This document shows positions 17,327 through 37,768 of a DNA stretch of 64,000 nucleotides, in pieces (positions within the stretch are counted from its first letter, which is position 1; each line of letters opens with the position of its first letter). Below the pieces are notes generated by a model that saw only the letters and a list, made by a program, of their open reading frames with translations, searched no databases and was not told the DNA's origin. Position numbers and translations under genes: made by a program. This DNA comes from an uncultured Candidatus Binatia bacterium (lineage in GTDB: Bacteria > Desulfobacterota > Binatia > UBA9968 > JAJDTQ01), in NCBI GenBank assembly GCA_964291295.2, contig OZ219754.1, positions 96,001 to 160,000 on the forward strand, written 5' to 3'.

Positions 17327-17799
17327 CCGTCCGTTTCCTTGACCGCCCGCTCCACCGCCTCGATGATCTTGGTATAGCCGGTGCAGCGGCACAGATTGCC
17401 CGACAACGCCTCCTCGATGTCGGCGCGCGCCGGGTCGGGCCGCTTGTCCAGGAGCGCCTTGGCCGCCAGCAGGATGCCGGGAATGCAGTAGCCGCACTGG
17501 GCCGCGCCCAGGTCGGCGAACGCCCGCTGCAGGGGATGAGGCCGGCCCGCGCGGGCAAGGCCCTCCACCGTGGTGATCTCCGGCCCCTCGGCCTCCACCG
17601 CCAGCACGAGGCACGAATAGACGGGCTCCCCGCCCACGAGCACCGTGCAGGTGCCGCACTCCCCCAGCTCGCAGCCGTGCTTGGTGCCGGTGAGTCCCAT
17701 CTCCTCCCGCAGCACCTCCAGCAGGCTGTGGGTGACGTGGCCCGCCACCTCGCAAAGCTCGCCATTGACCCGCAGGCGCAACAGGCGCATTCCCGCCAT
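17314..17799 (-). CDS. hcrC: 2x[2Fe-2S] subunit (HcrC/CoxS family)
   Basis: GCELGECGTCTV...SC, QCGYCIPG, GNLCRCTGY. Confidence 0.88.
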   Translation of the reverse strand: MAGMRLLRLRVNGELCEVAGHVTHSLLEVLREEMGLTGTKHGCELGECGTCTVLVGGEPVYSCLVLAVEAEGPEITTVEGLARAGRPHPLQRAFADLGAAQCGYCIPGILLAAKALLDKRPDPARADIEEALSGNLCRCTGYTKIIEAVERAVKETDGWQG

Positions 17800-17825
17800 C
17801 GTCTCGATGCTGGAAGGATTGTCGC

Positions 17826-19076: not shown

Positions 19077-19133
19077 TCAACCTTGACACGGAACGCCGGC
19101 GGGGCTCAAGCTTTCCCGCCACGGCGCGGCCGG

Positions 19134-20048
19134 TCAGCCCAGGCGCTGGCCGGGACGAATGCCGGCCGCGCCGGCGTATTCCGCGGCGGCCACCTTGTGC
19201 CGCCGGTCGTGGGGCCTCACCCGCTGCACCACCACGCTCGCACCGCCGGCGGCCACCGCCATGCCGGCGCCGGAAATATCCAGAACCTCTCCGTGGGTTC
19301 CCGTCCCGGTTCCCAACCGGCTGCCATACAGCTTCAACCTGTTCCCGCGGGCGGTGGTCCAGGCCCCGGGTTGAGGGTCGGTGCCGCAAATGAGGCGATG
19401 GACCTCTTCCGCCGGCCTGGACCAGTCGACTTCGGCATCCGCCTCGCGGCACCAGCCCTCGTAGGTGGCGCGGCCGTGGTCCTGGGCGATGCGCGGCGCC
19501 TTCCCGACGCGCACCAACTCCACCGCCTCCGCCATGGCATTGATGCCCATGGGAAAAAGCTTGTCGAAGTAGAGGCTGCCCACGGTATCGTCCCGGGCGA
19601 TGGCCACCTCCTTCTGCAACAGGATCGGGCCCTCGTCCAATCCTTCGTCGGGCCAGAAGATGGTAAGGCCGGTCTTGTCGTCCCCCATGATACGCGCCCA
19701 GTTGATGGAGCTGGGGCCGCGGTGCCGCGGCAGCAGCGACGGGTGATACTGGATGGTGCCCAGCCTCGGCGCATCCAGCACCCGTTGCGGCACCATCAGG
19801 GTGACGTAGGCCATGACGCACAGGTCGGCGTGAAAGGACTTCACGAACTCGAACGCCGGGTCCGTCTTCCAGGTCGTGGGCTGGTGCACCGGCAACCCCC
19901 GCTCCCGGGCCGCCTGCTTGAGCGGGTCCGGGGGCCGGCCCTCGCGGTCCGGCGGACAGAAGACCCCCGCCACCTCGTCCGGCACCGCCGCCAGCCGTTC
20001 CAGCACCGCCTTGCCGAACGCCTGCTGCCCGTGGATCAGAATCCGCAT
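19134..20048 (-). CDS. Formyltransferase family protein (Fmt / 10-formyl-THF hydrolase-like)
   Basis: YHPSLLPRHRGPSSINW, GLTIFWPDEGLDEGPILLQ, C-terminal Fmt domain (DPQPGAWT). Confidence 0.85.
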   Translation of the reverse strand: MRILIHGQQAFGKAVLERLAAVPDEVAGVFCPPDREGRPPDPLKQAARERGLPVHQPTTWKTDPAFEFVKSFHADLCVMAYVTLMVPQRVLDAPRLGTIQYHPSLLPRHRGPSSINWARIMGDDKTGLTIFWPDEGLDEGPILLQKEVAIARDDTVGSLYFDKLFPMGINAMAEAVELVRVGKAPRIAQDHGRATYEGWCREADAEVDWSRPAEEVHRLICGTDPQPGAWTTARGNRLKLYGSRLGTGTGTHGEVLDISGAGMAVAAGGASVVVQRVRPHDRRHKVAAAEYAGAAGIRPGQRLG

Positions 20049-20331
20049 CGGACTCCTCCGCACCCCGCGGCACTGACGCGCGGATGAACTTCATGGGCGC
20101 GGGTCATGCGCCGCGTCACGCCGTTCCGGGAACTTCGATCATACCAACACGATCCGGCACTGACAATTTTCGCGACGGCTTTCGCAACGGACTCCGCAAG
20201 CGAATTTTCGCGACCGAATTCGTCACGGACCGCAACAGGCGGACCGTCACCGACCATTCGGGGCCGGCGCCACCCATCGGGCACGGTGGCCGCCGGCGGG
20301 TGGGCGGCAGGTCCCCGGGGGCACCGCGGGC

Positions 20332-21885
20332 TCAGACTGTCTTGGTCAGCGTCAGGTGGTTGAAGCCGTCCTCCCGGCGGTATCCGATGTCGTCCGCGAA
20401 CTTGAGCACCAGCTGGATACCGATGCCGCTCCCCTCGACCCGATCCGCCAGAAACGCCTCGAAGTCCGGCTCCAGGTTGTCGGCAAGCGGGTCGTACTCA
20501 CGGGCGTCGTCGACAATGTGCACGACCAGGGTCCGGGTCTCTTCGTGAAACTGCAGGTCCACCTCGATCTCGTGTTCGGCCGCGTCGTTGTACCCGTAGT
20601 TGATGGTGTTCATGACCCATTCCTCAAGGGCCAACTGCAACTGGAACCGCGCCTCGTACGGGAACGCGTGGCGTCCGGCGAACTCCTCGACTTGCTGAGC
20701 GAGACGTCCGAGCTCGGCACTGTCGTTCTTGAGCATGAGGCTCAGGGCCTTCTCCGGATCGGTAACGGCGAGTTCCGTCGGACGTCTGGACGGGGCGACC
20801 GGCGGGAGCGCATCCGCGACGATGGCCTTCAACGCGGCGACATCGATGACCGCCTTCACCGAGTACTTGGCACTCCTGGGCGGCCAGGGCTCGGCGGGGT
20901 CCTTGAGAATGAGCTGCCTGATCTGATCGAACAGGTCCGCCACCAACGGCACGCGGCGGACCGCGTCAAAGGCCCGCTCCTTCTCCCGCAGCCGCATGTG
21001 GCGGTAGAAGGTCGTGTACGCCACGGAGTGGTTGTGGCCCAGGTCGAGCACGTCCATCAGCGAATCCGGCCCGTCGAGCGGCAGCTTCGCCGCACGGTGC
21101 AGTTCCGCCAGCGGTTCAGGTCCGATGCGGTCCTCATCAAGCCCCTTCCGGAAACGGCAAAGCGCTCCCAGCACGGCGAAATAGTCCGGTCTCGGCGGCT
21201 GGGTGAAGGTCCACAATGGCCGCACCGGGTCGTTCAGATATCGCGGCTCCCCGGCCTTGTGCTCACGTCCCAGAATGGCGTTCCGGTGGGGAAAGCGGCC
21301 GAAGACCAACAGCGCGTCGGAGTGCTCGATGGAGGCCTTGATGAACGACCAGCTGATGAACTGGTTGATCCTGCGGCGGCCCGACGCCACCACCCCCGCC
21401 AGATCCTTGCTCCAGCGCACGTACTTGTCGACGCACAGTTCCTGAAGCGCCAATTCTTCCGCGTGGGAAAGCGGCACATACACCCACATTCGCTCCAGGA
21501 TGTTGAACTCGGTCATGTCCCAGGCCGTCGTGCACAGATGCTCGGCCATGCGTACGGTAACGGAGTCGTTGGCGTACGCCACCGGGGTGCCCCGGTAGAC
21601 GCTGCGCGGGAACTGGTCGAGCACGATGAGTTTCGCCAACACGCCCTTGGGAGTCTCCCATGCGGGATCGGAAAAGAATGCGTCCACCCCTTCCTTGTGG
21701 ATCTGCTCGCACCAGTCCCGCTGGGCGTCGAAGAACTCCTTGTTCTCGGCGCTGCGGGCAAAGGGACCGAGGCGCCACATCAACATCCGGTCGCGCCAGT
21801 TGTCCCGGCTGGCGTCGCCAACCGAGCGCATCCCGCCCAACCAGAAACTGAGAACCCCCTCAGGGGTTCGCGAAGAAATCGTCAT
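20332..21885 (-). CDS. DUF924 domain fused to a C-terminal RsbW-like (HATPase_c_2) anti-sigma kinase domain
   Basis: DUF924: IVLDQFPRSVYRGTP, YVPLSHAE, FGRFPHRNAILGRE; kinase: LALEEWVMNTINYGY, IVDDAREYDP, GSGIGIQLV. Confidence 0.78.
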   Translation of the reverse strand: MTISSRTPEGVLSFWLGGMRSVGDASRDNWRDRMLMWRLGPFARSAENKEFFDAQRDWCEQIHKEGVDAFFSDPAWETPKGVLAKLIVLDQFPRSVYRGTPVAYANDSVTVRMAEHLCTTAWDMTEFNILERMWVYVPLSHAEELALQELCVDKYVRWSKDLAGVVASGRRRINQFISWSFIKASIEHSDALLVFGRFPHRNAILGREHKAGEPRYLNDPVRPLWTFTQPPRPDYFAVLGALCRFRKGLDEDRIGPEPLAELHRAAKLPLDGPDSLMDVLDLGHNHSVAYTTFYRHMRLREKERAFDAVRRVPLVADLFDQIRQLILKDPAEPWPPRSAKYSVKAVIDVAALKAIVADALPPVAPSRRPTELAVTDPEKALSLMLKNDSAELGRLAQQVEEFAGRHAFPYEARFQLQLALEEWVMNTINYGYNDAAEHEIEVDLQFHEETRTLVVHIVDDAREYDPLADNLEPDFEAFLADRVEGSGIGIQLVLKFADDIGYRREDGFNHLTLTKTV

Positions 21886-22005
21886 GTCCGTCCTGTCTCC
21901 AAAAAAAACTCGGGCAACCCTCGGGTTGAATCACCGGTTCCCATATCATACAGTTTGGAAACAATTAATGACAATCATGGTAATGAAGAGAGCAAATGAG
22001 AGATC

Positions 22006-22033
22006 AAAGAACAGGTTGTAAAAGAACAGATTG
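22006..22033. promoter_or_regulatory. Direct repeat in the AT-rich divergent control region
   Basis: AAAGAACAGGTTG (22006-22018) and AAAGAACAGATTG (22021-22033); a partial third copy ACAGGTTG near 22072. Confidence 0.4.
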
Positions 22034-22214
22034 ATGAAAAATGCAACGAAGGATGAACGGAGAGTCATGGGACAGGTTGCATGAGATCTGTTGAACTGCG
22101 TTTTGCACAAACCGCGGCCGGGCATGGAGGGCCTGTCGGCGTCCGCCGGCAATCGTGCGAGTCGGGCCTGGGGCGCGCACGAAGTCGGTGGCGGCAGTCA
22201 GTCGAGGTCAACGC

Positions 22215-24011
22215 ATGATCTTCCCGATTCCAGGAAAAAACGCCAGCCGCTGGCTTCTTGTCCCATGTCTGTTGGTGCTCGCGGCGGCGTCCGCGGCCGC
22301 ACGGCCCGCCGCCCCCGAGACCCCCATCGATTCCGAGGCCGCCCACCGGCCGCTTTTCCTGGAAGAACGATTTCCCTCTGCGGCCACATGCAGGACATGC
22401 CACGAGGATCATTACCGCGAGTGGTCGGTGTCGCCGCATGCCTATTCCCAGATGAGCCCCGTCTTCAACGCGTTGCACGGCGTCAGCCTTCAGCGAACCA
22501 ACGGAACCATCGGCGACTTTTGCATCCGCTGCCACTCACCCGTGGCCATGGGCCTTGGAGAGCCCTTGTTCATGAGCACCGCGGATCGGCATGTGGGTGC
22601 TCGTGAAGGCACCACCTGCATTGTCTGCCACCGTGTCAACCGCGCCTACGGGAAGGAAAGCGGCCGGATCAAGATCCTTGAGGGCGATCTCTTCGACACG
22701 GTCTACGGCACCGCCGGCAATGAGGAACTCCAGCGTGTGATCGCGAGCGAGGCCTACCAGGTCAACGCCGAGCGGGGCGAGCCGGGCAGGGCCATCCACG
22801 CCGAGGCGGAGCCGTTCTTCCAACTGGTCACTCCAGGGTTCTGCGGCACGTGTCACGATGTCAACTCACCCAATGGATTCCGTCTCGAGGAAGCCTTCAG
22901 CGAGTACAAGGCATCGCCGGCCGCAAGGCAGGGGATATCCTGTCAGGACTGCCACATGGGAACGGAGCCGGGGCGGCCGTCGGGATACGCCCGGGAGCCG
23001 GCGGCCCGCATCGGCGGTGTGGAGACCCGGCCGCGAAAGCGCACCAACCACATGTTCCCGGGACCGGACCATTCGGTGATCCATCCGGGTATCTTTCCAC
23101 ACAACCCCGAGGCCGCGGAACTGGCCACCATCCGTGAGTGGCTGGCGTTCGACCACAAGGCCGGATGGGGCACGGACGGATTCGAGGACAATGTCCCCGA
23201 GGGCGCCGTCTTTCCCGCACGCTGGAATTCCGTGGATGACCGGTATGACGCGCGCGAGATACTGGACCGGCAGATGGCGCTCCTGGACGAGTACATGGCC
23301 CAGCGAAAGCGGGTGTTGCAGGAGGGCTTCACGCTCGGCGCGGTGGTGACCGAACGGGCGGATGAGCGGGGGATCCGTTTCAGGGTGGAGGTGCGCAACA
23401 ACACTTCCGGCCACGGAGTGCCCACCGGCTTCGATGCGGAACGACTGGTCTACCTGCAGGTCACGGTGACGGACCGGGATGGCCAGGTCCTCTTCCGGTC
23501 CGGTGACCTGGATCCCAACGGCGACCTCCGCGACGGTCATTCCCGGTACGTTCATGACGGCGAACTGCCTCGGGATCCCCACCTGTTCAACCTTCAGTCC
23601 AAGTTCCTCATTCGCAACTTCCGCGGCAGCGAGAGCGAACGGGTCATACCGGTCAACGCCTCCTCCGACCCCTTGCCTTTCCTGCGTCCGTTGACGCAGT
23701 CGGGCATCCTCCTGGCACGTCCGGTGGGCTTGCGGAAGCACCGGAAGAACATCGAGCCTGGCGGGAATCGCTGGGGAACCTACGAGATCCCGGGCCGCCG
23801 GCTGACCGGAAAGGCCCCGTACACCGCCCATATCCGATTGATCTTCGGCATGGTTCCGGTCCATCTCGTGGACGAGATCAAGGGCGTGGGGTTCGACTAT
23901 GGCATGAGTGCCCGGGAGGTGGCGGAAGGGGTACTCGCCGGCCATGTCACGCTGCGGGAGCGCGACGTGGAATTCAACGTGCCCGCACGGAACGGCCGCG
24001 ACGTTCGATGA
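22215..24011 (+). CDS. Secreted pentaheme c-type cytochrome with large C-terminal domain
   Basis: Signal peptide; five CxxCH (CRTCH, CIRCH, CIVCH, CGTCH, CQDCH); GAGG RBS. Confidence 0.88.
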   Translation: MIFPIPGKNASRWLLVPCLLVLAAASAAARPAAPETPIDSEAAHRPLFLEERFPSAATCRTCHEDHYREWSVSPHAYSQMSPVFNALHGVSLQRTNGTIGDFCIRCHSPVAMGLGEPLFMSTADRHVGAREGTTCIVCHRVNRAYGKESGRIKILEGDLFDTVYGTAGNEELQRVIASEAYQVNAERGEPGRAIHAEAEPFFQLVTPGFCGTCHDVNSPNGFRLEEAFSEYKASPAARQGISCQDCHMGTEPGRPSGYAREPAARIGGVETRPRKRTNHMFPGPDHSVIHPGIFPHNPEAAELATIREWLAFDHKAGWGTDGFEDNVPEGAVFPARWNSVDDRYDAREILDRQMALLDEYMAQRKRVLQEGFTLGAVVTERADERGIRFRVEVRNNTSGHGVPTGFDAERLVYLQVTVTDRDGQVLFRSGDLDPNGDLRDGHSRYVHDGELPRDPHLFNLQSKFLIRNFRGSESERVIPVNASSDPLPFLRPLTQSGILLARPVGLRKHRKNIEPGGNRWGTYEIPGRRLTGKAPYTAHIRLIFGMVPVHLVDEIKGVGFDYGMSAREVAEGVLAGHVTLRERDVEFNVPARNGRDVR

Positions 24012-24015
24012 GATC

Positions 24016-25506
24016 ATGACCGATTCGGGTCCGACACGCCTGATGGGCGGGAAGAATGGGCGGGCATGCATGCCTGCCGCCATCGTGATGGCGCTGGCGT
24101 TGCTTGGAGCGGCGCCAGCGGCGTCCCCCGACACCGGGAACGAATCGCCGGAGCCTCCCCGAACGGCGGAGCCCGGGAGCCGCCTGTCGGACCAGCCGCT
24201 CCCGCTGCAGGTCGAGAAGGTACCCGACCGCCCGGCGCTGCTGCTGGAACTGGGGGAGCCCTTTCTTGGAACCGGTCCGCTGGGTCGGGAGTTCCAGCTG
24301 CCGACGGGGGCGGTGTGGCGGCCCGCGCTCTGGCTCTTCGGAACCTATCGGACCGCGATACAGACCTTCGACAACGACACCACCGCGTTGCGGACTCCCG
24401 ACTACCAAGGAACGCCCATTACGGAGTGGTCGCACCGCGTCGATCTTTTCGCCAATCTCAAGCTGTCGGCCACGGAACGCTTCCTCATCGGACTACGGCC
24501 CGTCGACCGCGGGATCGAGTTCACCCGCCTGTCCTTCCAGCCGCAGAGCGAGTTCACGACCTCGTTCAACTCGGTGGTCCGCACCCTGTTCCTCGAGGGC
24601 GATTTCGGCGAGATCTTTCCGAACCTCGACGTGGAAGACAGGCGAATGCTCGACTTCGGTTTCTCGGTCGGCCGGCAGCCCATGCTCTTCCAGGACGGAT
24701 TCCTGATCGACAGCGGGCAGATCTGTCATCCCGACGCCGTGACCCTGGTGCGCAACAACCTCCCGTTGCCGGGCGCGTCCAATCTGCGGGCTGCCCTCGT
24801 CTATGCCTGGGGCAACAATTTCCGGGACAACAACCGGTACGATCCGTACGCCAGGTTCTACGGCTTTTTCACGGAAGCGGACTTTGCCCTGACGACGGTG
24901 GACGTGGACTTCGTCTGGCTCGAATCCAAGGCCACGGGCAACGCCTTCCATGCCGGGATCCGGGGGGTTCAGCGCCTCGGGCCGTTCAACACCACGTTCG
25001 CCCTCAATACCTCGCACCCGCTGGAGCGCGAAACACCGGCGACAGGCCGCGGTACGCTGTTGTTCCAGGAAACCTCCTGGACCCCGCCGCACACCGACAA
25101 CGTCCTCTATCTCACCACGTTCTGGGCCATCGAGGAGTTCGCCTCGGCCTTCCGTGGTCCCGACATGGGCGGGTCACTGGGGCGGGCCGGGATTCTGTTC
25201 CAGGCACAACAGCTGGACCGCTACCGGGGAGCGTTGGACAGTCAGGCCCACAATGTCGTCGGGGGCAGTCTCGGGTATCAGATGTTCTTCGACGGTACGC
25301 GGCGGCAGCTCATCCTCGAACTGGGAGGGCGCAGGAACACGAAACGGACGGACGGGGCGGCCGGGGCGGATGAACTCGCCGCGGGCCTGCGATTCCAGCA
25401 GGCTTTCGGCCGACACTTTGTCGCGCAGGTGGATACCTTCAGTACCCTTCGGGAAGGAAGGAACCTCGCCTACGGAGCACGTTTCGAATGGCGAACGCAA
25501 TTCTGA
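24016..25506 (+). CDS. Putative outer-membrane beta-barrel protein
   Basis: Signal peptide (AIVMALALLGAAPA), amphipathic strands, C-terminal YGARFEWRTQF ending in Phe; start 24016 or 24070. Confidence 0.7.
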   Translation: MTDSGPTRLMGGKNGRACMPAAIVMALALLGAAPAASPDTGNESPEPPRTAEPGSRLSDQPLPLQVEKVPDRPALLLELGEPFLGTGPLGREFQLPTGAVWRPALWLFGTYRTAIQTFDNDTTALRTPDYQGTPITEWSHRVDLFANLKLSATERFLIGLRPVDRGIEFTRLSFQPQSEFTTSFNSVVRTLFLEGDFGEIFPNLDVEDRRMLDFGFSVGRQPMLFQDGFLIDSGQICHPDAVTLVRNNLPLPGASNLRAALVYAWGNNFRDNNRYDPYARFYGFFTEADFALTTVDVDFVWLESKATGNAFHAGIRGVQRLGPFNTTFALNTSHPLERETPATGRGTLLFQETSWTPPHTDNVLYLTTFWAIEEFASAFRGPDMGGSLGRAGILFQAQQLDRYRGALDSQAHNVVGGSLGYQMFFDGTRRQLILELGGRRNTKRTDGAAGADELAAGLRFQQAFGRHFVAQVDTFSTLREGRNLAYGARFEWRTQF

Positions 25507-25696
25507 ACAACTGGGCGGGTGCGCCGAGGGACGCTTCGGGATGCGGTCGGCGGGGGTGCTTTCATGGCTCTCCGTCCAAGGTGCCGGCAATCTGTTGCCT
25601 TGCCCCGTATCCGGCACGAGTTCGGGCACGAACCGGGGCTCTGGCCGACCCCTGTCCCACAAGGGTCTTCGGCGGCGCCGACTGCCGGGCTTCAAG

Positions 25697-26959
25697 ATGA
25701 TGGAAACGTGGCTGACAGCCGCGGTCCTGGTGGCCGTGGCGGCATGGGTCGCCGCCGCGGCGGCGGATGCCTGGTCCCGGGTGCGCTGGCGGCGTCGGCG
25801 TCTGGCCCTCGACGTGGAACGCTACTCGGCGCTGGCGAACCTCCTGGCCAGGCGCGACGAGGCCATCGTCCGGAACCTTGCCCGGACCTGGAGCGGCTAC
25901 CGGAACTTTCGCGTCATCTCCAGGGTTGACGAGGCGGAAGACATCGTGTCCTTCTACCTGCGCCCGCATGACGGACGGGCCGTCCCCGAGTTCCTTCCCG
26001 GCCAGTTCCTCACCTTCCGTCTCCATCACGAGGCCGGAGGGGAGCCGACGGTGCGCTGCTACTCGCTGTCCCGCGCCCATGCCCGGGACCGCGACTACCG
26101 CATCACCATCAAGCGGCTGGCGGCCCCGGAAGGCGCCGCACCGGGAACGCCCGGCGGCAAGGCGTCGTCCTGGTTCCACCATCGCATTGCCGAAGGCAGC
26201 GTGGTGGAGGTGGCCCCGCCCGCGGGTCGATTCACGCTGGACCTGGCCGGCGGGCGGGCGGTCGTGTTCATCGCCGCCGGCATCGGCATCACCCCTTTCC
26301 TTCCAATGGTGGAACAACTGGCGGAGCGCGAACCCGATCGGGAGGCATGGTTGTTCCACGGTGCAAGGAACCGGAAACAGCAGATGGGCGCCGACCTCCT
26401 GCAGTGTTGCGCCGAGAACCCCCGCTTCCATTTCATCAGTTGCTACAGCCGTCCCGCGGAACCCGACCTGCTCCCGGAAGGATCCGGCGACAGGGAACGG
26501 GGATGGGTCACTCCCGACCTCCTGCGGCGGCGGCTTCCCTCCTCGAATTACGAATTCTATGTATGCGGTCCGCCGCCGATGATGACGGCGGTCACGCAGG
26601 GGCTCCGTGACTGGGGAGTTCCACCCGGTTCCATCCACACGGAGGCCTTCTCTTCCGGCACGGTGCGCGAGATGGGCCGGGCCAGCCTGAACGCCGGGCA
26701 GACCGCAGCTTGCGACGTCTCCTTCCGCGGAAGCGGCAAGAAGCTGCGCTGGCAGGCGAATTCGGGCACCCTGCTGGACCTTGCGGAAAGGAACGCCGTC
26801 TTCCTGCCTTCGGGGTGCCGGGCCGGCAACTGCGGTACCTGCGCCACGCCCGTGCTTTCGGGAAACTTCACCTACCTTTCCAGGCCCGATGCGCGGGTCG
26901 ACGAGGGAAACTGCCTGGTCTGCATTTCGGTGCCGGCCGGAGACATGGAGCTCGCATGA
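25697..26959 (+). CDS. Membrane-anchored FAD/NAD(P)H/[2Fe-2S] ferredoxin reductase (PaaE/Hmp-reductase-like)
   Basis: N-terminal TM; PGQFLT, RCYSLS, GKASSW, AAGIGITPF, YVCGPPPMM, EAF, CRAGNCGTC...CLVC. Confidence 0.88.
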   Translation: MMETWLTAAVLVAVAAWVAAAAADAWSRVRWRRRRLALDVERYSALANLLARRDEAIVRNLARTWSGYRNFRVISRVDEAEDIVSFYLRPHDGRAVPEFLPGQFLTFRLHHEAGGEPTVRCYSLSRAHARDRDYRITIKRLAAPEGAAPGTPGGKASSWFHHRIAEGSVVEVAPPAGRFTLDLAGGRAVVFIAAGIGITPFLPMVEQLAEREPDREAWLFHGARNRKQQMGADLLQCCAENPRFHFISCYSRPAEPDLLPEGSGDRERGWVTPDLLRRRLPSSNYEFYVCGPPPMMTAVTQGLRDWGVPPGSIHTEAFSSGTVREMGRASLNAGQTAACDVSFRGSGKKLRWQANSGTLLDLAERNAVFLPSGCRAGNCGTCATPVLSGNFTYLSRPDARVDEGNCLVCISVPAGDMELA

Positions 26960-28005
26960 AAGTGACGCCCCGCAACCCGCTCCGGGATTGGCGGCCGTAC
27001 GCGCCGGCGTTCCTTGCGGTGGTGTTCCCGCTGCTCCTGGGCGCACCCGCGGCGGCCCAGGACGCCGCCGCGCGCACGCCGGGGCCGGGGCTTGATGTGA
27101 CGGCCGTTCAGGGGCCCAACGCCTGCGGCGAGTGCCACAAGAGGACCGCCCAAGTCTGGAAGAAGACCGTCCACCATGGCGTATTCAAGGAGACCCACCG
27201 CTCCCGCACGGGCCGGGCCTTCGCCAAGAGTCTGGGGATCCGACGCATCAAGGACCCCGAAGGGCTGTGCGCCACCTGCCACTACACGGTCCGGGCGGGA
27301 AAGAAACGCGCAAGGGCCATCGCCGGCATCTCGTGCGAGTCCTGCCACGGCGAGGGCCGTGACTGGATCCGGCTCCACAGCGCGTACAGCGGCAAGAACA
27401 GGGAGACCGAGTCCCCTCAGGAGGCCGCGTCCCGCTGGATGCGATCCGAGAAGGCCGGCATGGTCCGGCCCCGCAACCTCTACGCCATGGCGCGGAACTG
27501 CTACGCCTGCCATGCCGCCGCCCACGAGGATCTTGTCAACATCGCCGGGCACCCGCCGGGCCGCGGTTTCGAAATGTTGTCCTGGACCATGGGCGAGGTT
27601 CGGCACAATGTCTGGTACACGCCGGCCAACGATGAAGCCTCGCCGGCACGCAGGCGCATGCTCTATCTGGCGGGCCTTTCGCTCTCGCTGGAGACTTCCC
27701 TGGAGGCGCTCTCCAGGGCCCGCACGGCCGGCGGCGCCTATGCCGCGAACCTGAGCGCCCGAATCGACCAGGCCCGGGATGGGCTCGCGAAGGTGGCCGG
27801 GCGGCTGGCCGACCTGGAGGAGATCAAGGCCATGGTGGCCGTGGTGCCGCGCCAGGAGGCGACGGCGGAACAGTTGAAGGCGGCAGCCGCCGCGGTGGCC
27901 GAACAGGCGCGGCGGCTGTTGCAGCGCGACGGCACGGGCATGGAAGCCATCGACGACATGCTCCCCGGCCCCGCGGACTACGTCGGCAAGGTGGCGCGGC
28001 CTTGA
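26956..28005 (+). CDS. Secreted tetraheme c-type cytochrome (c554-like)
   Basis: Signal peptide ending PAAAQ; CGECH, CATCH, CESCH, CYACH; ATGA overlap with the upstream gene. Confidence 0.88.
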   Translation: MKVTPRNPLRDWRPYAPAFLAVVFPLLLGAPAAAQDAAARTPGPGLDVTAVQGPNACGECHKRTAQVWKKTVHHGVFKETHRSRTGRAFAKSLGIRRIKDPEGLCATCHYTVRAGKKRARAIAGISCESCHGEGRDWIRLHSAYSGKNRETESPQEAASRWMRSEKAGMVRPRNLYAMARNCYACHAAAHEDLVNIAGHPPGRGFEMLSWTMGEVRHNVWYTPANDEASPARRRMLYLAGLSLSLETSLEALSRARTAGGAYAANLSARIDQARDGLAKVAGRLADLEEIKAMVAVVPRQEATAEQLKAAAAAVAEQARRLLQRDGTGMEAIDDMLPGPADYVGKVARP

Positions 28006-28029
28006 ACGCCCGCCGCCGTCTGGAGCCAC

Positions 28030-29679
28030 ATGTTCAAGCAACTATCGGCCGCCGAGCGGGAGGAGGTTCGCCGTGGGGTGGCGCAGTCCCCTCTGCTTTC
28101 GAGCATCGCCGCAGACCCCTTCATGGAAACGCGGTTCGAAGAGTTCCTGGCTCAGTACACCCGGCCGGTCCATTTCGACACGGGGGAAGTCGTCTGCCGC
28201 AAGGGTGACTACGGCAGCCTGCTCTACTTCGTCCTGGAAGGGTCGCTCCGGGTGGTGCGCGAAGACCCGGAAGGCGTGGTGGGACTGTCCGATCCCCCCG
28301 GCCTGGTCTCCATCGGACCCGGACGCCGCTTCTGGAACTTCTGGAAGCGGTCCGAGGACGAGGAGATCCTGGTGGTGGACGTCAACTACCGCCGAAGGAT
28401 CACGAACATTGACGAAGTCCTGGAGGCCTGCGAGACGGCACGGCTCGCACCGGCGCGCGCAAGCGCCGGCGCGCCGGCCGCCGCCGCGAACGAGGCCATC
28501 GCCGGCGCCTTCGCCGTGCTGACCCGGTCCGCGTTCCAGCGCACCGTCTTCGCCGAAACGCCGGTCCGCGCACTGGCCGTGCACTGGCGCGGAATGCGTG
28601 ACATGGCCACCCTGCACGACCCCGCACGCAACGCCATCAACCACCACTGCCAAGCCGAGATCACCGACCTGGTATGCTCCGGCGGGTTCGAGATCCCCAT
28701 CTTCTCCTCGCTGCCGGAAAACGCCCTGGCCGCCCTCATGGCAGCCGGGGACTTCCGGTTCGCGGGCAAGGCCGCTTCGGAGTTCACCGCGGTCCGCCAA
28801 GGCGAGCCGCTGCGGGAGGTGTTCGTCGTGGTCTCCGGGTTCGGCCGGGTCCGCCATCTCTCGGCCGGCCAAAGCCGCAGCGTCGGTTTCGTCCGCCGGG
28901 GAGACGTGTTCGGACTGGCGGCGCTGGCGGCGGGCGGGCAAGGGGCCGTGAGCAGGACTTCCCTGGAACTGCTGGGCGACGCCAGCCTGCTGGCGTTGCC
29001 GGCGGCGGCGCTGCTGGAGGACTGCTTGCCGTTCCTTTCCGAAGAGGACATCTCGCAAACCGATCCCGCGACCCTCGTGGAACTCGGGGATCCGGACGCC
29101 GTGAGCCCCGAAGCGCTGCGCAACCGATCCCGGGAGGCCTCGCTCGTGGATTTCCTGGTTGACAACAGTTTTGTCCGGGGACGGCAGGCGATGGTCATCG
29201 ACCAGACCCGCTGCGTGGGCTGTGATGCCTGCGTCCAGGGCTGTGCGGACACCCACGGCGGCGTCCCCCGCTTCGTGCGGCAGGGTCCGTCAGCGGGCGG
29301 CTACGCCGTGGCCAACGCCTGCATGCATTGCGAGGAGGCGCCGTGCCTGGTCAACTGCCCCACCGAAGCCGTGCTGCGCAAATCCAGCGGCGAGGTGGTG
29401 GTGTCGGAGATCCTGTGCGTCGGCTGCGGCACCTGCACCGCCGCTTGTCCCTACGACAACATTCGCCTGGTGGAAATGGGGCTCAACGCGGAGCAGAAGG
29501 AACAGTCCATCCCGGTCGCCACCAAGTGCGACCTCTGCATCGGCCAGGAGGCAGGCCCCGCCTGCGTGCGCGCCTGCCCGCACGACGCCATCGCCCGCGT
29601 GGACCTCACGGACCATGCGCTGGTGCCGCGGTTGGCCGCCGGAGCGCCGCTGCGCACTTTGCAAACGAAGGGACGATGA
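28030..29679 (+). CDS. Tandem cNMP-binding-fold domains fused to a DmsB/NrfC-type 4x[4Fe-4S] ferredoxin
   Basis: GEVVCRKGDYGSLLYFVLEGSLRV and RQGEPLREVFVVVSGFGRV...GDVFG; CVGCDACVQGC, CMHCEEAPCLVNCP, CVGCGTCTAACP, KCDLC...PACVRACP. Confidence 0.85.
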   Translation: MFKQLSAAEREEVRRGVAQSPLLSSIAADPFMETRFEEFLAQYTRPVHFDTGEVVCRKGDYGSLLYFVLEGSLRVVREDPEGVVGLSDPPGLVSIGPGRRFWNFWKRSEDEEILVVDVNYRRRITNIDEVLEACETARLAPARASAGAPAAAANEAIAGAFAVLTRSAFQRTVFAETPVRALAVHWRGMRDMATLHDPARNAINHHCQAEITDLVCSGGFEIPIFSSLPENALAALMAAGDFRFAGKAASEFTAVRQGEPLREVFVVVSGFGRVRHLSAGQSRSVGFVRRGDVFGLAALAAGGQGAVSRTSLELLGDASLLALPAAALLEDCLPFLSEEDISQTDPATLVELGDPDAVSPEALRNRSREASLVDFLVDNSFVRGRQAMVIDQTRCVGCDACVQGCADTHGGVPRFVRQGPSAGGYAVANACMHCEEAPCLVNCPTEAVLRKSSGEVVVSEILCVGCGTCTAACPYDNIRLVEMGLNAEQKEQSIPVATKCDLCIGQEAGPACVRACPHDAIARVDLTDHALVPRLAAGAPLRTLQTKGR

Positions 29680-29734
29680 AGCTGCGGCGGGGCAGGGAGC
29701 CGCGGCCGGCACGGTCCATCCGCGGGCGGGCCGC

Positions 29735-30526
29735 ATGACGGCGCGGAACGCCATTGGATGGCTGACGGCCGGACTGGCGGTGCTGGCGGGCACGGTGCTT
29801 TACCGGGTCGCGGACACCGCCCTGCTTCCGACCGCCCACTGGAGCGGCTGGACCCTCGCCCTGGCCTTCCTGCTGCTGGGAGTGCACGGTGTGCACGGGA
29901 TAAAGCGGCGGTGGCCGGGACCGGTGCGGCTGCTGGTGCACCTCCATCTGGGATGGATCGCCGCCCTGCTGTTCCTGGTCCACGGCACTCTGCCCGGTTT
30001 CTCCCAAGGCGCCTTCCACGGAATCCTGTCGCTCTCCTTCGCCGCGGCGCTGGCGTCCGGCGCGGCGGGGTTGTGCCTTGAACGGTTCTGCACGCACCGG
30101 CAGCGGGACTGGGACGCGCTGCCCTGGCCACGCATCGCGCAAGAGCGCGGCGTGCTGGCCGCACAGGCCGGCGCAGCCTTTCACGAGATCGTGAAGCGGG
30201 GCTGTCCACCCCTCCTGGCGCGGCTCTACGCCCAGCGCCTGCTGCCGTTTCTGTCACGCCCGGCACATCTGTGGCAACACTGTATCGGGCACCGGCGCCC
30301 GCTTGAGGATCTCCTGCAGGAACTGTCCCATGCCGGCCGCCCGTTGGCGGACCACGAGGACTTCCTGCGCATCAGGGACATCGTGGTGCGAAAGGACCAT
30401 CTCGACCAGCGTCGGGCGCTCTACTGGCTCCAACGGGGCTGGCTCTTCGTGCACCTGCCCGCGGCCGCGGTGGCGGCGGTGTTCGCGGTCTTTCACGTGA
30501 TCTTCGTGTACTCGTTCGGCGGCTGA
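29735..30526 (+). CDS. Integral membrane protein, ferric-reductase-like di-heme b candidate
   Basis: About five TM helices; two His pairs each with 13 intervening residues (HLHLGWIAALLFLVH; HLPAAAVAAVFAVFH). Confidence 0.7.
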   Translation: MTARNAIGWLTAGLAVLAGTVLYRVADTALLPTAHWSGWTLALAFLLLGVHGVHGIKRRWPGPVRLLVHLHLGWIAALLFLVHGTLPGFSQGAFHGILSLSFAAALASGAAGLCLERFCTHRQRDWDALPWPRIAQERGVLAAQAGAAFHEIVKRGCPPLLARLYAQRLLPFLSRPAHLWQHCIGHRRPLEDLLQELSHAGRPLADHEDFLRIRDIVVRKDHLDQRRALYWLQRGWLFVHLPAAAVAAVFAVFHVIFVYSFGG

Positions 30527-30537
30527 GGATCGAGTCC

Positions 30538-32646
30538 ATGGAACCGCGCACCCGGCACCCCGCCGACGCGTTCATCTTCGCCCACGCCGACTGGGAGTGC
30601 GGACGGGAGGGTGTCCCCTGCCACTTCGGACCGGAGGCTTCGGGACAGTGCTCGGCGCGCGCGGAATGCGTTCCCCGACGGGACGGTGACCGCTGGCTGT
30701 GCCGGCGGCCGCTGGCCCGCGGGGGAGCCTGTGAGAAGGGTCCGCAGCCCCACGGCGCGTGCTGCTTCCCGCCAGCCGCATGCGTGCCCCGGGCGACCGT
30801 GCGGCGGCGGCTCCGGACCGCCTGGCGTCTGGCCGCCCTGTGCGCGCTGGCGGCGGCGCTGGCGCTGCTCACCAGCCGCTCCATGATCCTGCCGGGACCG
30901 GTGCTTTCGACACACGCGGCCTTCGAGCAGGACTGCGGCCAGTGTCACGTCGGCGTGGCCGAGCCGTGGCGGGTGTGGGCGGGAGAGGTCTTTCGCGCCG
31001 GCCTGTCCGGCCGGGAACGGCGACTGGCCAACGCCGCCCGCTGCCTCTCCTGTCATGACTTCGGTGCCGGCGCCATGGCCGCGCACACCGCGGGGCCGGC
31101 GGCGTTCCCGCAGGCCGGCGGCGGGGAACGGGACCGCCGGCGGCCGCCCGGGCCGTCTCCGGCCACCGCGGCGATGCTGCCGGAGGACCACCGGCCGGGG
31201 GGACCGGGCGAAAGCCGCGGGAACATCCCCTGCACCGTCTGTCACCGCGAGCACGAAGGCCGCGACTTCGTCGCCACCCGCATGACCGATGCCCGCTGCC
31301 AGACCTGCCACCGGGAGGTCTTCGCGGGCTTTCCCGCACACCCGCCCTTCACCGGCTATCCCCATCATGCGCTCTCCGCCATCGCCTTCGACCACGGCCG
31401 TCACTTCAGCCGACACTTTGCCGCCGCCGTCAAGGACGGCGTCTCCCCGCCCGAAAACTGCGCCTCGTGCCACGTCCAGGAGACCATGGCTCTCCGCGGT
31501 TTTGGCACGTGCGCCGCCTGCCACGACCAGGAGATCACGCGCGCATCCACCGATCTGGAGTTCCTGGCTCCGCCCGGCCTCGACCTGGAGACCCTGGCGG
31601 ACAGGCCCATCGGCGACTGGCCGCTGGATGCCGAGGCGGAGCCCAACGCGTTCCTGCGGCTGATGCTCGAGGCCGGCGGCTATCTGAACACAGAGGAATT
31701 GAAGACCGTCACCGAGATCGACCTGCTGGACCTGAGCAACGCCGGCAAGGCCGAAAAGGAGGCGGCCGCGGGACTGGCCTGGGCGTTCAAGAAGCTGATC
31801 CGGGACCTTGTGCGGAACGGCCCCTCGGTTTTCGTGGAAGTGGCCCAGGGACTTCCCGGCGGCGCTTCGGTCCCGGCCGATCTGGCCGGCTCGCTGTCGT
31901 TCGAGGTGGCGAGCCATGCGGCCAGCCAATGGTTCCCGGAACTGGAGCGCGAACTGGAGCGGCACGAACAGGGTGAAGCGGTGGCCACCCGCGCCGTCGA
32001 GACGAATCTCGACGATCCCGTGGACATGGACGAATGGCTGCGCTACGGCGGCTGGCGATATCGGGAACTGGCGCTGCGCTACCGGCCCACCGGACACGCC
32101 GACCGGTTCCTCCGCGGCTGGCTTGCGTTGTCCACCGCTCCGACCGCCGCCGGCACGGCGCTCTTCGAGGCGCTCACCGACGACGAGGCCCCGTCCGCGA
32201 CCTGCGCCCGATGTCACCGGTCCCGTGAAGCGGCGGACGCCGGAGACGGCCGGGAAGGCCCGCCGCGTGTCCACTGGCTGGCTCGGGGAACACGTGCGGC
32301 TGCGCCCGTGTCCATGGCTCGATCCTTCAGGGCTGTGGCCGACGCACCGGCGCAACCCGCGTCCGGGCCATCGTTTCACCTGCGGACCTTCTCGCACCGC
32401 TCCCACCACCACGCCGTGGCCACGGGCGGTTGCGCTTCGTGCCACCGCATGGCGGAAGGCAAGGAGCCGCGGCAGGGCCCCGCCGGCTTCGCCCCGGTAT
32501 CGCCCGCCGCCTGCGCCGCCTGCCACGATCGGGAGACGGCGTTGGCCAGTTGTACGACCTGCCACCGCTACCATTTCGGCAACGGCGACCCCAGGCTGCT
32601 GCACACCGGCGACCACGCCGCCGGCCCCCGTCCCTTCGGAGAATGA
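30538..32646 (+). CDS. Membrane-anchored decaheme c-type cytochrome with Cys-rich N-terminus
   Basis: Ten CxxCH (CGQCH, CLSCH, CTVCH, CQTCH, CASCH, CAACH, CARCH, CASCH, CAACH, CTTCH); nine Cys before an Arg-rich stretch and TM anchor. Confidence 0.88.
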   Translation: MEPRTRHPADAFIFAHADWECGREGVPCHFGPEASGQCSARAECVPRRDGDRWLCRRPLARGGACEKGPQPHGACCFPPAACVPRATVRRRLRTAWRLAALCALAAALALLTSRSMILPGPVLSTHAAFEQDCGQCHVGVAEPWRVWAGEVFRAGLSGRERRLANAARCLSCHDFGAGAMAAHTAGPAAFPQAGGGERDRRRPPGPSPATAAMLPEDHRPGGPGESRGNIPCTVCHREHEGRDFVATRMTDARCQTCHREVFAGFPAHPPFTGYPHHALSAIAFDHGRHFSRHFAAAVKDGVSPPENCASCHVQETMALRGFGTCAACHDQEITRASTDLEFLAPPGLDLETLADRPIGDWPLDAEAEPNAFLRLMLEAGGYLNTEELKTVTEIDLLDLSNAGKAEKEAAAGLAWAFKKLIRDLVRNGPSVFVEVAQGLPGGASVPADLAGSLSFEVASHAASQWFPELERELERHEQGEAVATRAVETNLDDPVDMDEWLRYGGWRYRELALRYRPTGHADRFLRGWLALSTAPTAAGTALFEALTDDEAPSATCARCHRSREAADAGDGREGPPRVHWLARGTRAAAPVSMARSFRAVADAPAQPASGPSFHLRTFSHRSHHHAVATGGCASCHRMAEGKEPRQGPAGFAPVSPAACAACHDRETALASCTTCHRYHFGNGDPRLLHTGDHAAGPRPFGE

Positions 32647-33021
32647 ACCCACGCCTCGACGCCCGCAGCGCTTCCCGGGTCACCCGCATCGTCCGACGCG
32701 CAGTCCTCCGGGTAGCCGCGATGCCGGGAATCGCGTGTCTCGCCTCGGGTGACGCCGGCATGCATCCGTGCGGCGCTGGCTCCACGAACCGCTGCGACCG
32801 TACCGCCGTCATGGCGTCCACGGCCGCTTGGTGAACCGGCCTCAAGAAGCCCGCGTCGTCAAACCGCGGGATGATCTGCAGGGCCGCGGCACAGGCCGCG
32901 TTCGTCAGGTTGCGGATGGCGGCGCAGACCCGAGCACCCCGGCTGCCAGGATCCGGACAAGGACAGCCGGCGAGCTTTCATCCGCTGCCAACGGCAGGCA
33001 GCCATCGCCGCGTCCAAGAAC

Positions 33022-33759
33022 TCACGCGTTCAGCAAGCTGCGAGAGAAATGACCTCGAAAGTGAACAACTCCGGGATTGACCCCGATGCGGGCCACGACT
33101 CCTTCACGACCCATCTTGCTTTCCTGTACTTTCGCCTGCCACGGCGGCGGCTTGCTGATCGTCGTTCCGGGAATCGGGTCCGGCAACTGCGAACCTTGCA
33201 GCGCGTTCGTCCGGATATGCCTCGCGAAATCGGCGTGCGCCATGAGTTGGCGCGACGGCCTGCCGGTCCCGGGGGTCACCAGCCCAATCCTCTTGCCATG
33301 ATGTTGCCTCACGAGGCGCATCGCCTCGGCGATGTCACTGTCATTGCTTACGACGACCGCACAATCGTAGGCATCCAGCCACGCATCGTTCAGCAGATGC
33401 ACCGCAAGATTGACGTCGGAGCCCTTTTCCTCGGTGCGGATCACTTCCGTCGTGCGCCGGTTTCCGACTGGCTGTACAAGAGGCGCCCGGACCCTGTGGC
33501 TGAGAAAGTGCCCGAAATAAACCGCGACCTCGGGCCGGTGGTGCCGCAGCGCACGGAGGTAGACGTCCTGCCGCTGCGGCTTCGACGGATCGGCAAGGGT
33601 CCCCGACACTCTCGCCGTGAAGTACTTGACCTTCAGGATATGGTGATGGGGCTGGAGAACTTTCGCGAACAGTGCCGGCAGGTCCAGCCATTTCCAGACC
33701 GTCCCCTTGAGTGCTCCGTAATAGAGATTGAAGCCGTCGACATGGACGTAGGTGCGCAT
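33022..33759 (-). CDS. NYN domain (LabA/DUF88, PIN fold) ribonuclease
   Basis: HVDGFNLYYG, VKYFTARV, EEKGSDVNLAVHLLNDA, VVSNDSDIAEA: acidic active-site set intact. Confidence 0.9.
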   Translation of the reverse strand: MRTYVHVDGFNLYYGALKGTVWKWLDLPALFAKVLQPHHHILKVKYFTARVSGTLADPSKPQRQDVYLRALRHHRPEVAVYFGHFLSHRVRAPLVQPVGNRRTTEVIRTEEKGSDVNLAVHLLNDAWLDAYDCAVVVSNDSDIAEAMRLVRQHHGKRIGLVTPGTGRPSRQLMAHADFARHIRTNALQGSQLPDPIPGTTISKPPPWQAKVQESKMGREGVVARIGVNPGVVHFRGHFSRSLLNA

Positions 33760-37285: not shown

Positions 37286-37768
37286 CCAGATCAGGAGGGT
37301 TTTACCATGGCTATTGAGCGGACCGGCGGTGCTGGCAACGAATGGCTTTGGGGAGAGAATGGCAATGACAGGTTGGATGGCGGTGCCGGTGACGACATTT
37401 TGACTGGCGGCGCCGGTGACGATACTTTGGCTGGCGGTTCGGGCAATGACCGGATCTGGGGCGGCATTGACGACGACAGGCTGGAAGGCGGCGCTGGAGA
37501 CGACAGACTGACGGGCGGCGTCGGCGCCGACACCTTCGTGTTCCGTACGGGAGACGGCAGCGACACCATTGCCGACTTCAAGGCCGACGATACGATCGAG
37601 ATGGTCGGCGTGTCGGGCGGGTTCGAAGCGTTGGTCATCGAGCAGGATGGCGTCAACGCCGTCATCCGCTACGGCGATCAGGACACGATCACGCTGCTGA
37701 ACGTGACGGCCGCATCGCTGAGCAGGGACGCCTTCCGTTTCGTGACCGCGGAAAGGAAGGTTCTGATG

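Follow-up and report, generated by a model that had tools for sequence, protein, structure and literature searches.

The closest described counterpart of the locus examined here is the ptdABCDEFG operon, for which literature searches found a single description, a preprint (bioRxiv 10.1101/2023.11.21.568154) that names it ptd after its penta-, tetra-, and deca-heme proteins. In the available text of that preprint, whose methods comprise PSORTb, counts of CXXCH motifs, and a gene-neighbourhood tool, PtdB is a porin, PtdC an oxidoreductase using flavin adenine dinucleotide (FAD) and nicotinamide adenine dinucleotide or its phosphate (NAD(P)), PtdD a periplasmic tetraheme, PtdE a protein with a cyclic-nucleotide monophosphate (cNMP) domain and two 4Fe-4S clusters, PtdF a ferric-reductase-like transmembrane (TM) protein, and PtdG a periplasmic decaheme. 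The same text reports that ptdAB is highly transcribed in an oxygen-deficient zone, and suggests extracellular electron transfer or nitrogen cycling as roles for the operon. Two other systems, as they are presented in the accessible parts of the respective papers, bear on the question: MtrB, whose 26 strands enclose the decaheme MtrA (PMC7198977), and ExtKL/MccSep of Geobacter, a polysulfide reductase made of a pentaheme, an Ig-like stem, and an active site with a His/Cys heme and a selenocysteine loop (PMC13510729). A porin-cytochrome cluster of Methylobacter (PMC13322032) belongs, in the available text of its paper, to the MtrAB family and is unrelated to the present locus. Here we analyse a stretch of 64,000 nucleotides (the window) from an uncultured Candidatus Binatia bacterium (assembly GCA_964291295.2, contig OZ219754.1, positions 96,001 to 160,000). 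At 22215-32646 it carries seven genes that, judged by their sequences, are a copy of the already named ptdABCDEFG operon, gene for gene, and not a new system. They are the following.

22215-24011, plus strand: ptdA, 598 amino acids with 5 CXXCH motifs; pentaheme cytochrome.
24016 (or, more likely, 24043)-25506, plus strand: ptdB, no Pfam match, C-terminus ...WRTQF; predicted 18-strand β-barrel porin of the outer membrane.
25697-26959, plus strand: ptdC, 420 amino acids with FAD_binding_6, NAD_binding_1, and Fer2; N-terminally anchored FNR-type reductase with a C-terminal plant-type 2Fe-2S domain.
26956-28005, plus strand: ptdD, 349 amino acids with 4 CXXCH motifs; periplasmic tetraheme resembling cytochrome c554.
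28030-29679, plus strand: ptdE, 549 amino acids with two cNMP_binding stretches and Fer4_11; cytoplasmic.
29735-30526, plus strand: ptdF, 263 amino acids, no Pfam match; five-helix inner-membrane protein, presumed carrier of two hemes b.
30538-32646, plus strand: ptdG, 702 amino acids with 10 CXXCH motifs and one TM helix; decaheme c-type cytochrome.

All seven open reading frames (ORFs) have high third-position guanine-plus-cytosine (GC) content, and the gaps between them, from ptdA to ptdG, are 4-31, 190, -4, 24, 55, and 11 bp. The c-heme motifs of the locus add up to 19 (5+4+10). Hydropathy gives signal-like N-termini in PtdA, PtdB, and PtdD, an N-terminal anchor in PtdC, none in PtdE, several helices in PtdF, and one in PtdG. 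A preliminary description of this DNA, made from the letters alone, had placed the seven co-oriented genes correctly, together with the 19 CXXCH motifs, the Phe-terminated protein, the anchored reductase, the protein combining two cNMP folds with four [4Fe-4S] clusters, and the two His-x13-His pairs. It listed the penta- and tetraheme proteins together; the content of that list stands, and the true order is penta-heme, porin, FAD/NAD(P) oxidoreductase, tetra-heme, cNMP plus 4Fe-4S protein, transmembrane protein, deca-heme. This order is identical to the one in the available text of the ptd preprint. Hence the statement that the set matched no known one has to be given up, as it maps gene for gene onto an operon that is named but uncharacterised.

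The agreement with the preprint, within its accessible text, extends to PtdA, which is homologous to the c552 of Thermochromatium tepidum in both analyses, and there are also differences. The preprint counts two 4Fe-4S clusters in PtdE, whereas 16 invariant cysteines point here to four; it calls PtdF ferric-reductase-like, whereas membership of that family is not detectable here; and it gives marine or saline hosts, whereas the loci collected here come also from lake, soil-survey, and other nonmarine sources. In the window's clade the cNMP cassettes are degenerate. An 18-strand model of PtdB, a predicted PtdA-PtdB complex, natural PtdE-PtdF fusions, and a linked cyclase are new relative to the preprint.

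The conservation of the seven-gene set is far beyond chance, since the same genes are syntenic across several phyla. Loci were obtained with a profile built from a PtdE alignment and run against genome contigs; 433 relatives were confirmed, of which the best 80 were examined, with genes assigned by ORF calling followed by the best BLASTP match to the genes of the window. For PtdE itself, some 20 close relatives of full length were found, with identities of 50-77%. All seven genes occur in the same order and on the same strand in 23 of the 80 loci, and all seven occur rearranged in another 7, which bears out the synteny that the preliminary description had named as its own check. Orthologous clusters in Alpha- and Gammaproteobacteria and in Planctomycetes, taken as a mark of the ptd operon, are thus present. 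The full-order loci belong to Alpha- and Gammaproteobacteria, SAR324, Planctomycetota, Verrucomicrobiota, and Gemmatimonadota; with Betaproteobacteria and one Binatia metagenome-assembled genome (MAG), the 80 loci cover at least six phyla. Within the operon, 74 loci have room for two genes after ptdE, and 70 of these have ptdF and ptdG there. After ptdA comes ptdB in 32 of 35 loci; of the three others, one reflects an artefact of ORF boundaries, one has a weak ptdB, and one is cut by a contig end. Partial loci (22/80) are mostly on short contigs. Among 1.84 billion representative sequences, a PtdF profile matches 4391 representative clusters at E ≤ 1e-3, 2093 at 1e-10, and 646 at 1e-30. The operon is therefore widespread, with clusters by the thousand on the PtdF profile and hosts in at least six phyla.

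The ptd products form, in the reading that we hold to be somewhat probable, an NAD(P)H-fed and quinone-independent electron-export chain ending at a porin-docked pentaheme. Membrane-anchored PtdC, with FAD and 2Fe-2S, would oxidise cytoplasmic NAD(P)H and hand the electrons to cytoplasmic PtdE with its four [4Fe-4S] clusters; PtdE would be seated on PtdF. Two bis-His hemes, each bound between a pair of parallel PtdF helices, would take the electrons across the inner membrane, from where they would pass to the membrane-anchored periplasmic decaheme PtdG, then to the tetraheme PtdD, and then to the soluble pentaheme PtdA. PtdA would be docked at the periplasmic mouth of PtdB, with the heme-free hairpin of its β-sandwich domain within the barrel, and the hemes themselves would stay inside the outer membrane. 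With PtdA so docked, the electrons would go to a small molecule in solution that gains access to PtdA by way of the pore or at its mouth. The cNMP-fold domains of PtdE would act as a regulatory switch on this wire, fed in many relatives by a neighbouring cyclase; in the window's clade the canonical cNMP contacts are lost.

The series of cofactors (FAD, 2Fe-2S, four 4Fe-4S, two hemes b, and 10, 4, and 5 hemes c), taken with the topology that the sequences indicate, would lead without a break from NAD(P)H in the cytoplasm to the inner side of the outer membrane. Beyond this we infer in which order the carriers act, that electrons flow outward, that PtdF holds heme b, and what kind of acceptor they meet. 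A complete wire from NAD(P)H to the outer membrane had been suggested from the letters of the DNA; its composition and topology largely hold good, and the PtdE-PtdF fusions described below speak for it, whereas the direction of flow and the acceptor stand as proposed and no firmer. Outward flow is favoured because the characterised relatives of PtdC oxidise NAD(P)H, and because export would go with the membrane potential, whereas NAD(P)+ could be reduced by inward flow only from a donor whose potential lies far below -320 mV. Such a chain would bypass the quinone pool and cost proton-motive force, so respiration would be a less fitting role for it than detoxification, assimilation, repair, or the balancing of redox state. 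The same cost, and the same bypass, would explain why a regulatory domain sits on the wire.

At the cytoplasmic end, PtdC matches the Pfam families PF00970 (FAD_binding_6) and PF00175 (NAD_binding_1), Fer2, and weakly PF08030. Its best relative in the PDB is the reductase module of the flavohemoprotein Hmp (1GVH, E = 4.3e-35), followed by phthalate dioxygenase reductase and NqrF, and it thus contains the FNR-type FAD and NAD(P)H module expected of a NOX or ferric reductase system. To our knowledge, the known relatives of this module in the FNR/Hmp/PDR family are all NAD(P)H oxidisers. Residues 5-23 form a TM helix with RVRWRRRR after it, which places the catalytic part in the cytoplasm. PtdD, in the periplasm, matches Cytochrome_C554 of Pfam (7.7e-12) and cytochrome c554 in the PDB (1BVB, E = 6.1e-6); cytochrome c554 is the electron acceptor of hydroxylamine oxidoreductase.

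PtdE combines two kinds of domain. The cNMP_binding family PF00027 matches it at 68 bits (cut-off 27.5) over two stretches. Its Fe-S domain, at residues ~385-528 (29182-29613), is of the HycB/NrfC type and matches Fer4_11; the 16 Fe-S cysteines fall into four groups and are invariant in 22/22 and in 102/102 sequences, which argues for four [4Fe-4S] clusters and not two. The best PDB relative of this domain is the cytoplasmic HycB (HycB3 of 7QV7 at 3.5e-21, HycB of 7Z0S), and the NrfC-like subunit of 2VPW is also found. The N-terminus has no export signal and no twin-arginine motif, and this, together with the cNMP domains, indicates a cytoplasmic protein. All equivalog scores are under their cut-offs, and no gene for NrfD or a molybdoenzyme lies within the ptd cluster, as had already been noticed. 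A role as a Tat-exported NrfC or DmsB was considered for PtdE and rejected, for want of a signal and of an NrfD or molybdoenzyme partner.

The canonical phosphate-binding cassette of cNMP domains consists of Gly-Glu and Arg-Thr/Ser-Ala. It is found in domain 1 of PtdE in 59 of 102 sequences and in domain 2 in none of the 102. In the PtdE of the window both cassettes lack the canonical Glu and Arg, and the same is true of its close clade (19 further sequences: L001, L002, and P0002-P0018); the idea that ligands gate this particular copy therefore finds no support in its cassettes. In the family at large, clustering of flanking ORFs over all 80 loci, complemented by tblastn, brings out one outstanding extra family beside ptd, a class III adenylate/guanylate cyclase (Guanylate_cyc, 4.1e-12). 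Clustering puts it in 20 loci; with L064, tblastn raises the number to 21. The 20 loci and one example are as follows.

Cyclase beside ptd: L017, L021, L024, L029, L033, L035, L038, L041, L042, L047, L049, L055, L056, L058, L061, L068, L070, L075, L076, and L080.
L024:5800-7383, minus strand: example of a linked cyclase gene.

The cyclase gene is placed divergently upstream of ptdC in the Pirellulales-type loci, directly after ptdG in the verrucomicrobial ones, and upstream of ptdA in SAR324. No cyclase gene was found in the window, where none of 18 tblastn queries matched. Gating by a second messenger, as judged from these sequences, is well motivated for the family and doubtful for this copy, which may sense another ligand or be ungated. 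Control of a redox wire by a cyclic-nucleotide domain, if it exists, would be unusual.

PtdF carries two His-x13-His pairs, H69/H83 (29939-29983) and H240/H254 (30452-30496), as would be expected of two helices of a NOX or ferric reductase. Just eight alignment columns do not vary among 52 orthologues, and these histidines occupy four of them (52/52). The AlphaFold2 model (predicted local distance difference test, pLDDT, 91.2) has five long membrane helices and a cytoplasmic helical insert at 131-200. With the basic N-terminus inside, helices 3 and 5 of the model would be parallel, which would put a heme held by H69/H240 near the cytoplasm and one held by H83/H254 near the periplasm. Weak Pfam matches appear among the 52 members to DUF4405 (19/52), to the cytochrome b561 family Ni_hydr_CYTB (17/52), and to Ferric_reduct (4/52, best E = 1.2e-3). 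A search of the PDB with the sequence gave nothing useful, and the ESM Atlas returned solely clusters of PtdF's own kind without a Pfam family. The layout had been likened to that of NOX and ferric reductases; membership in that family does not follow, as the PtdF of the window has neither a Ferric_reduct (PF01794) match nor a fold neighbour in the PDB.

Evidence that PtdE and PtdF work together comes from nature. Fusions of the two, of ~820-860 amino acids, are found in P0019, in L015 (Oceanospirillum sediminis, L015:9896-12475), in P0123, and in P0193, and their occurrence in four independent sequences is strong comparative evidence for one working unit. The third member of this group, PtdG, has 10 CXXCH in every orthologue that is not cut by a contig end. 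A TM helix at residues 94-112 (30817-30873), preceded by basic residues, separates the periplasmic heme domain from the following feature.

30592-30813, plus strand: Cys-rich N-terminal domain of PtdG, residues ~19-92, with two 4-Cys repeats before the TM helix; predicted to be cytoplasmic.

Of 73 sequences, 55 have the repeat twice, 8 have it once, and 10 lack it. This domain corresponds to no Pfam family in any of 10 orthologues, where only matches at chance level appear, and to no usable ESM Atlas entry, and the PDB sequence search with PtdG found no relative. The interpretation that we favour is a metal-stabilised docking head for PtdE/PtdF.

At the other end of the chain, PtdA is the best conserved of the seven proteins, with 50-58% identity across phyla. 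Its N-terminal part matches Cytochrome_C554 of Pfam, and its best PDB match is the pentaheme c552 of T. tepidum (5ZE8, E = 4.7e-14), with a second aligned stretch at 378-437 in the C-terminal domain. It is thus, as one would require of a ptd protein, a homolog of this c552 with a C-terminal β-rich domain. In 28 of 34 orthologues the first Cys of PtdA is that of the first CXXCH, which leaves no room for a lipobox. Of 35 sequences, 20 hold just the 10 cysteines of the CXXCH motifs, and no other Cys is conserved. Hence mature PtdA should have no His/Cys heme, the type that TsdA, SoxAX, and MccSep use according to the available text of PMC13510729. A nitrite reductase like NrfA was dismissed as an identity for PtdA, with CXXCK in 0/35 sequences, as was a polysulfide reductase of the MccSep type, with no Cys or selenocysteine at the catalytic positions. 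The loop GHGVPTGF of PtdA, aligned by eye, has Phe at the selenocysteine position of MccSep, and the score against the ExtKL model NF040886 of NCBIfam is 39.7 bits (cut-off 250). These two facts make PtdA a relative but not a member of the PHC/MccSep family.

PtdB has no Pfam or NCBIfam match and no sequence relative in the PDB. Its AlphaFold2 model, from 34 sequences, has a pLDDT of 83.8 and 18 long strands, counted from the secondary-structure list. In the PDB, Foldseek places MOMP, chitoporin, OccK/OpdK, and AlgE best (E from 5e-10 to 1e-7), all of which we take to have 18 strands; the 50 matches listed are porins or outer-membrane barrels throughout, and MtrB is none of them. The C-terminal residue is aromatic in PtdB and in most of 33 orthologues, and the N-terminus has the consensus S.LSD.P.P...LP.R..PL.E.G..FLGTG in 34 sequences. 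The barrel fold presumed for this gene in the preliminary description is accordingly what the model gives, and on that model PtdB is an Occ/AlgE-like porin of 18 strands and not a sheath like MtrB.

The pair PtdA-PtdB was chosen for complex prediction because it decides between a wire and a substrate pore. Residues 44-598 of PtdA and 44-487 of PtdB were modelled together. The score is 0.88 (0.88, 0.88, and 0.89 in the separate runs), whereas the best of three controls reaches 0.00; among solved complexes 116 of 157 come up to the mark of 0.88, and among mismatched pairs 2 of 215, counts that are only rough because our own alignments were used. Contacts agree between runs to at least 84%, and the pLDDT of the partner is at least 86. 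No solved complex of this type that the prediction could simply reproduce is known to us. The model favours binding, as had been expected of barrel and pentaheme, and falls short of demonstrating it. In the predicted interface, residues 491-496 and 509-512 of PtdA lie against alternating, lumen-facing residues of PtdB strands. Contacts of PtdA ~485-517 with every second residue of many PtdB strands and with the periplasmic turns suggest that the heme-free hairpin fills the periplasmic half of the lumen while the heme domain caps the mouth. The two segments involved are the following.

23667-23765, plus strand: residues 485-517 of PtdA, predicted to lie inside the lumen of PtdB.
24172-24240, plus strand: residues 44-66 of PtdB (numbered from the start at 24043), a conserved periplasmic N-terminal extension predicted to pair with residues 556-570 of PtdA.

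In the region of PtdA that includes residues 485-517, P488 and R507 are invariant among 30 sequences, and R491, P492, P503, P515, and R519 are nearly so. A more specific form of the export chain can be built on this, and we offer it as possible but doubtful: a second-messenger-gated, membrane-potential-assisted valve for the export of NAD(P)H electrons, ending in an enzyme-capped porin, where a small, probably anionic oxidant would pass through a barrel lined by the Arg residues of the PtdA hairpin to reach a pentaheme reductase. If electrons leave with the membrane potential, reducing power below the potential of NAD(P)H would be possible. Such a chain, if real, could explain unassigned reductive activities of aerobic or microaerobic marine, lake, and soil bacteria, for example the formation of extracellular superoxide or the reduction of iodate, of metal chelates, or of sulfur and selenium oxyanions. 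If bacteria that are no specialists could send NAD(P)H electrons to the outer membrane without quinones, they would have a separate means of reducing extracytoplasmic compounds. The capped porin, the fusion of PtdE with PtdF, the PtdF histidines that never vary, the Cys-rich head of PtdG on the cytoplasmic side, and the cyclase gene beside ptd make this annotation testable in cultured hosts. Cultured carriers among the loci are Nisaea denitrificans DSM 18348, Nisaea nitritireducens DSM 19540, Oceanospirillum sediminis D5, Ferruginivarius sediminum, and Aeoliella sp. SH292.

Several points weigh against the export chain. The one preprint that describes the operon calls its function completely unknown in its available text, and the same text reports ptd in autotrophic nitrite oxidisers and ptdAB transcripts alongside sulfide-oxidation genes, with which an oxidative role also fits. 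Six non-motif His are conserved in PtdA (35 sequences), enough for five bis-His hemes, and no open catalytic site is evident. The PtdA-PtdB complex was modelled without hemes, from alignments of 30 and 34 rows. Heme b in PtdF is suggested by His spacing and weak profile matches alone; the PtdF of the window has no Pfam match, and its model has no PDB neighbour in Foldseek at E < 0.1, the best row being the sensor domain of a chemoreceptor (E = 0.25, TM score 0.37). Ligand gating of the window's copy, with both cassettes degenerate and no cyclase gene, is unproven. Finally, the 28 of 80 loci with ptdC-G and without ptdAB within 10 kb, some of them on short contigs, imply that the outer-membrane module is separable and that the core may serve other acceptors.

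Among the alternatives, a respiratory conduit to external solids of the Mtr/Pio type fares best and is still improbable. This was the reading of the preliminary description and, in its accessible text, also that of the preprint, which proposes extracellular electron transfer. A porin gene adjoins a multiheme gene, the operon encodes 19 hemes, binding of PtdA to PtdB is predicted, and there are weak similarities to MtrC/MtrF domains and to the DmsE family. These similarities do not go far, as the DmsE and OmcA/MtrC models TIGR03508 and TIGR03507 give 18.4 bits (cut-off 192) and 23.5 bits (cut-off 209). The analogy with MtrAB also breaks down in structure: PtdB is modelled with 18 strands, like substrate-specific porins, and not with the 26 by which MtrB sheathes MtrA; a heme-free hairpin of PtdA, and not its hemes, is predicted in the lumen; PtdA lacks a lipobox; and the set contains neither a surface lipoprotein cytochrome nor a quinol dehydrogenase. 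Feeding from NAD(P)H would bypass the quinone pool and so lose the energy that respiration is meant to conserve, and aerobic heterotrophs are among the hosts.

Slightly less likely is a division into two separable modules, with ptdCDEFG as a general electron gate from cytoplasm to periplasm and ptdAB as an optional porin-enzyme pair with its own chemistry. This differs from the export chain in degree and not in kind. Besides the ptdC-G loci just mentioned, ptdAB lies elsewhere or is reoriented in 7/80 loci. In six verrucomicrobial loci with ptdC-G and without ptdAB (L011, L023, L037, L042, L058, and L080; for example L080:10649-13249, minus strand), a protein of ~867 amino acids with 5 CXXCH and LVIVD repeats takes their place and may be an alternative terminal partner. 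The locus closest to that of the window among the best 80 of 433, L001 in the Binatia MAG, provides another example. Its ptdC-G are 62-77% identical to those of the window, whereas ptdA is 49% and ptdB 30% identical (3676-7003 in L001, against 22215-25506), and its ptdA has 4 CXXCH by motif count, not 5. As these identities are below those in other phyla, an exchange of the outer-membrane module in one lineage is suggested. Set against this, the order of the seven genes is kept in 23/80 loci over several phyla, and the gaps in the window are short.

Inward electron uptake, with PtdA oxidising a periplasmic or extracellular donor (such as reduced sulfur, Fe(II), or a nitrogen intermediate) and PtdC making NAD(P)H, is the least likely: for all that PtdA has a relative in a sulfur bacterium (the c552 of T. 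tepidum, for which the available text of PMC11976967 suggests a role in sulfur metabolism), that PtdD resembles c554, and that the preprint, in its accessible text, finds ptdAB transcripts with sulfide-oxidation genes and ptd in Nitrospirales, it would have to run against the membrane potential to about -320 mV, which only very low-potential donors could drive, through a reductase whose FNR/Hmp-type relatives are known as NAD(P)H oxidisers, and from a PtdA with no conserved non-CXXCH Cys and hence no His/Cys heme of the TsdA, SoxAX, or MccSep kind.

The surroundings of the operon in the window vary. A scan of 21500-33300 for promoters and terminators gave no excess of sites over shuffles, so that no operon boundaries can be claimed, and a tRNA and Rfam search of the 64-kb window found none. 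Upstream lies the following gene, which is kept upstream of ptd in L001 only, with 75% identity.

20335-21930, minus strand: ORF with DUF924 and HATPase_c_2 (anti-sigma/serine-kinase-like), divergent from ptdA.

The remaining flanking genes of the window are not conserved beside ptd elsewhere among the 80 loci. This includes the stretch at 13915-20090 (minus strand), with genes for a molybdoenzyme of the xanthine-dehydrogenase family (FAD_binding_5/CO_deh_flav_C and MoCoBD subunits), a CoA-ligase-like protein, and a formyltransferase. Farther downstream, an adjoining pair of ORFs at 37286-38866 consists mostly of RTX calcium-binding nonapeptide repeats. A YhgA-like transposase (Transposase_31) lies at 39925-40557 (minus strand), and an ORF of 358 amino acids at 46107-47183 (plus strand) lies within a lower-GC stretch (0.624 at 46-48 kb); together, these two may mark mobile or foreign DNA.

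The export chain can be compared with known systems. With MtrCAB and PioAB, Ptd has in common an outer-membrane barrel, a multiheme c-type cytochrome, and a periplasmic multiheme feed. It differs in the 18-strand barrel and the lumenal hairpin, both predicted, in NAD(P)H as the source of electrons, and in lacking a surface lipoprotein cytochrome and a quinol dehydrogenase; neither a large MtrB-family barrel nor an MtrA/DmsE decaheme with an MtrC/OmcA surface lipoprotein was found in the set. In NADPH oxidases and ferric reductases, and in Fre-MsrQ-MsrP, electrons pass from NAD(P)H to a flavin, then to two bis-His hemes on parallel helices, and from these to an acceptor outside the cytoplasmic membrane. 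This layout is common with Ptd as proposed. In Ptd the flavoreductase, the four-cluster ferredoxin, and the heme protein would be separate subunits, and the acceptor would be a 19-heme c-type chain; PtdF also differs from NOX and ferric reductases in its five modelled helices and cytoplasmic insert, and neither Foldseek on the PDB nor Pfam finds a ferric-reductase domain in it. Tmc and Hmc of sulfate reducers, and CbcL of Geobacter, span the membrane with a multiheme cytochrome in the periplasm, an integral cytochrome b, and an Fe-S protein in the cytoplasm, a trio that Ptd as proposed would also have. The NCBIfam scores for HmcA, HmcB, and TmcA are far under their cut-offs, and in Ptd the Fe-S subunit is HycB-like with cNMP domains, not HdrD-like; Ptd further has an NAD(P)H reductase of its own and a module for the outer membrane.

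The outer-membrane end has a parallel in ExtHIJKL of Geobacter, where, in the accessible parts of the papers (PMC13510729, PMC11976967), the porin ExtI goes with ExtKL/MccSep, the pentaheme polysulfide reductase. Ptd has no ExtH-like rhodanese partner, and PtdA lacks the distal Cys. According to the available text MccSep forms a soluble homotetramer, in contrast to PtdA, for which docking on the porin is predicted. What the two share is a loop motif, G-H-x-[IV]-P-x-G in an alignment by eye, and the weak match of PtdA to the ExtKL model of NCBIfam. By analogy with ExtI and ExtKL, PtdAB resembles a reductase that is closed onto a substrate pore of its own.

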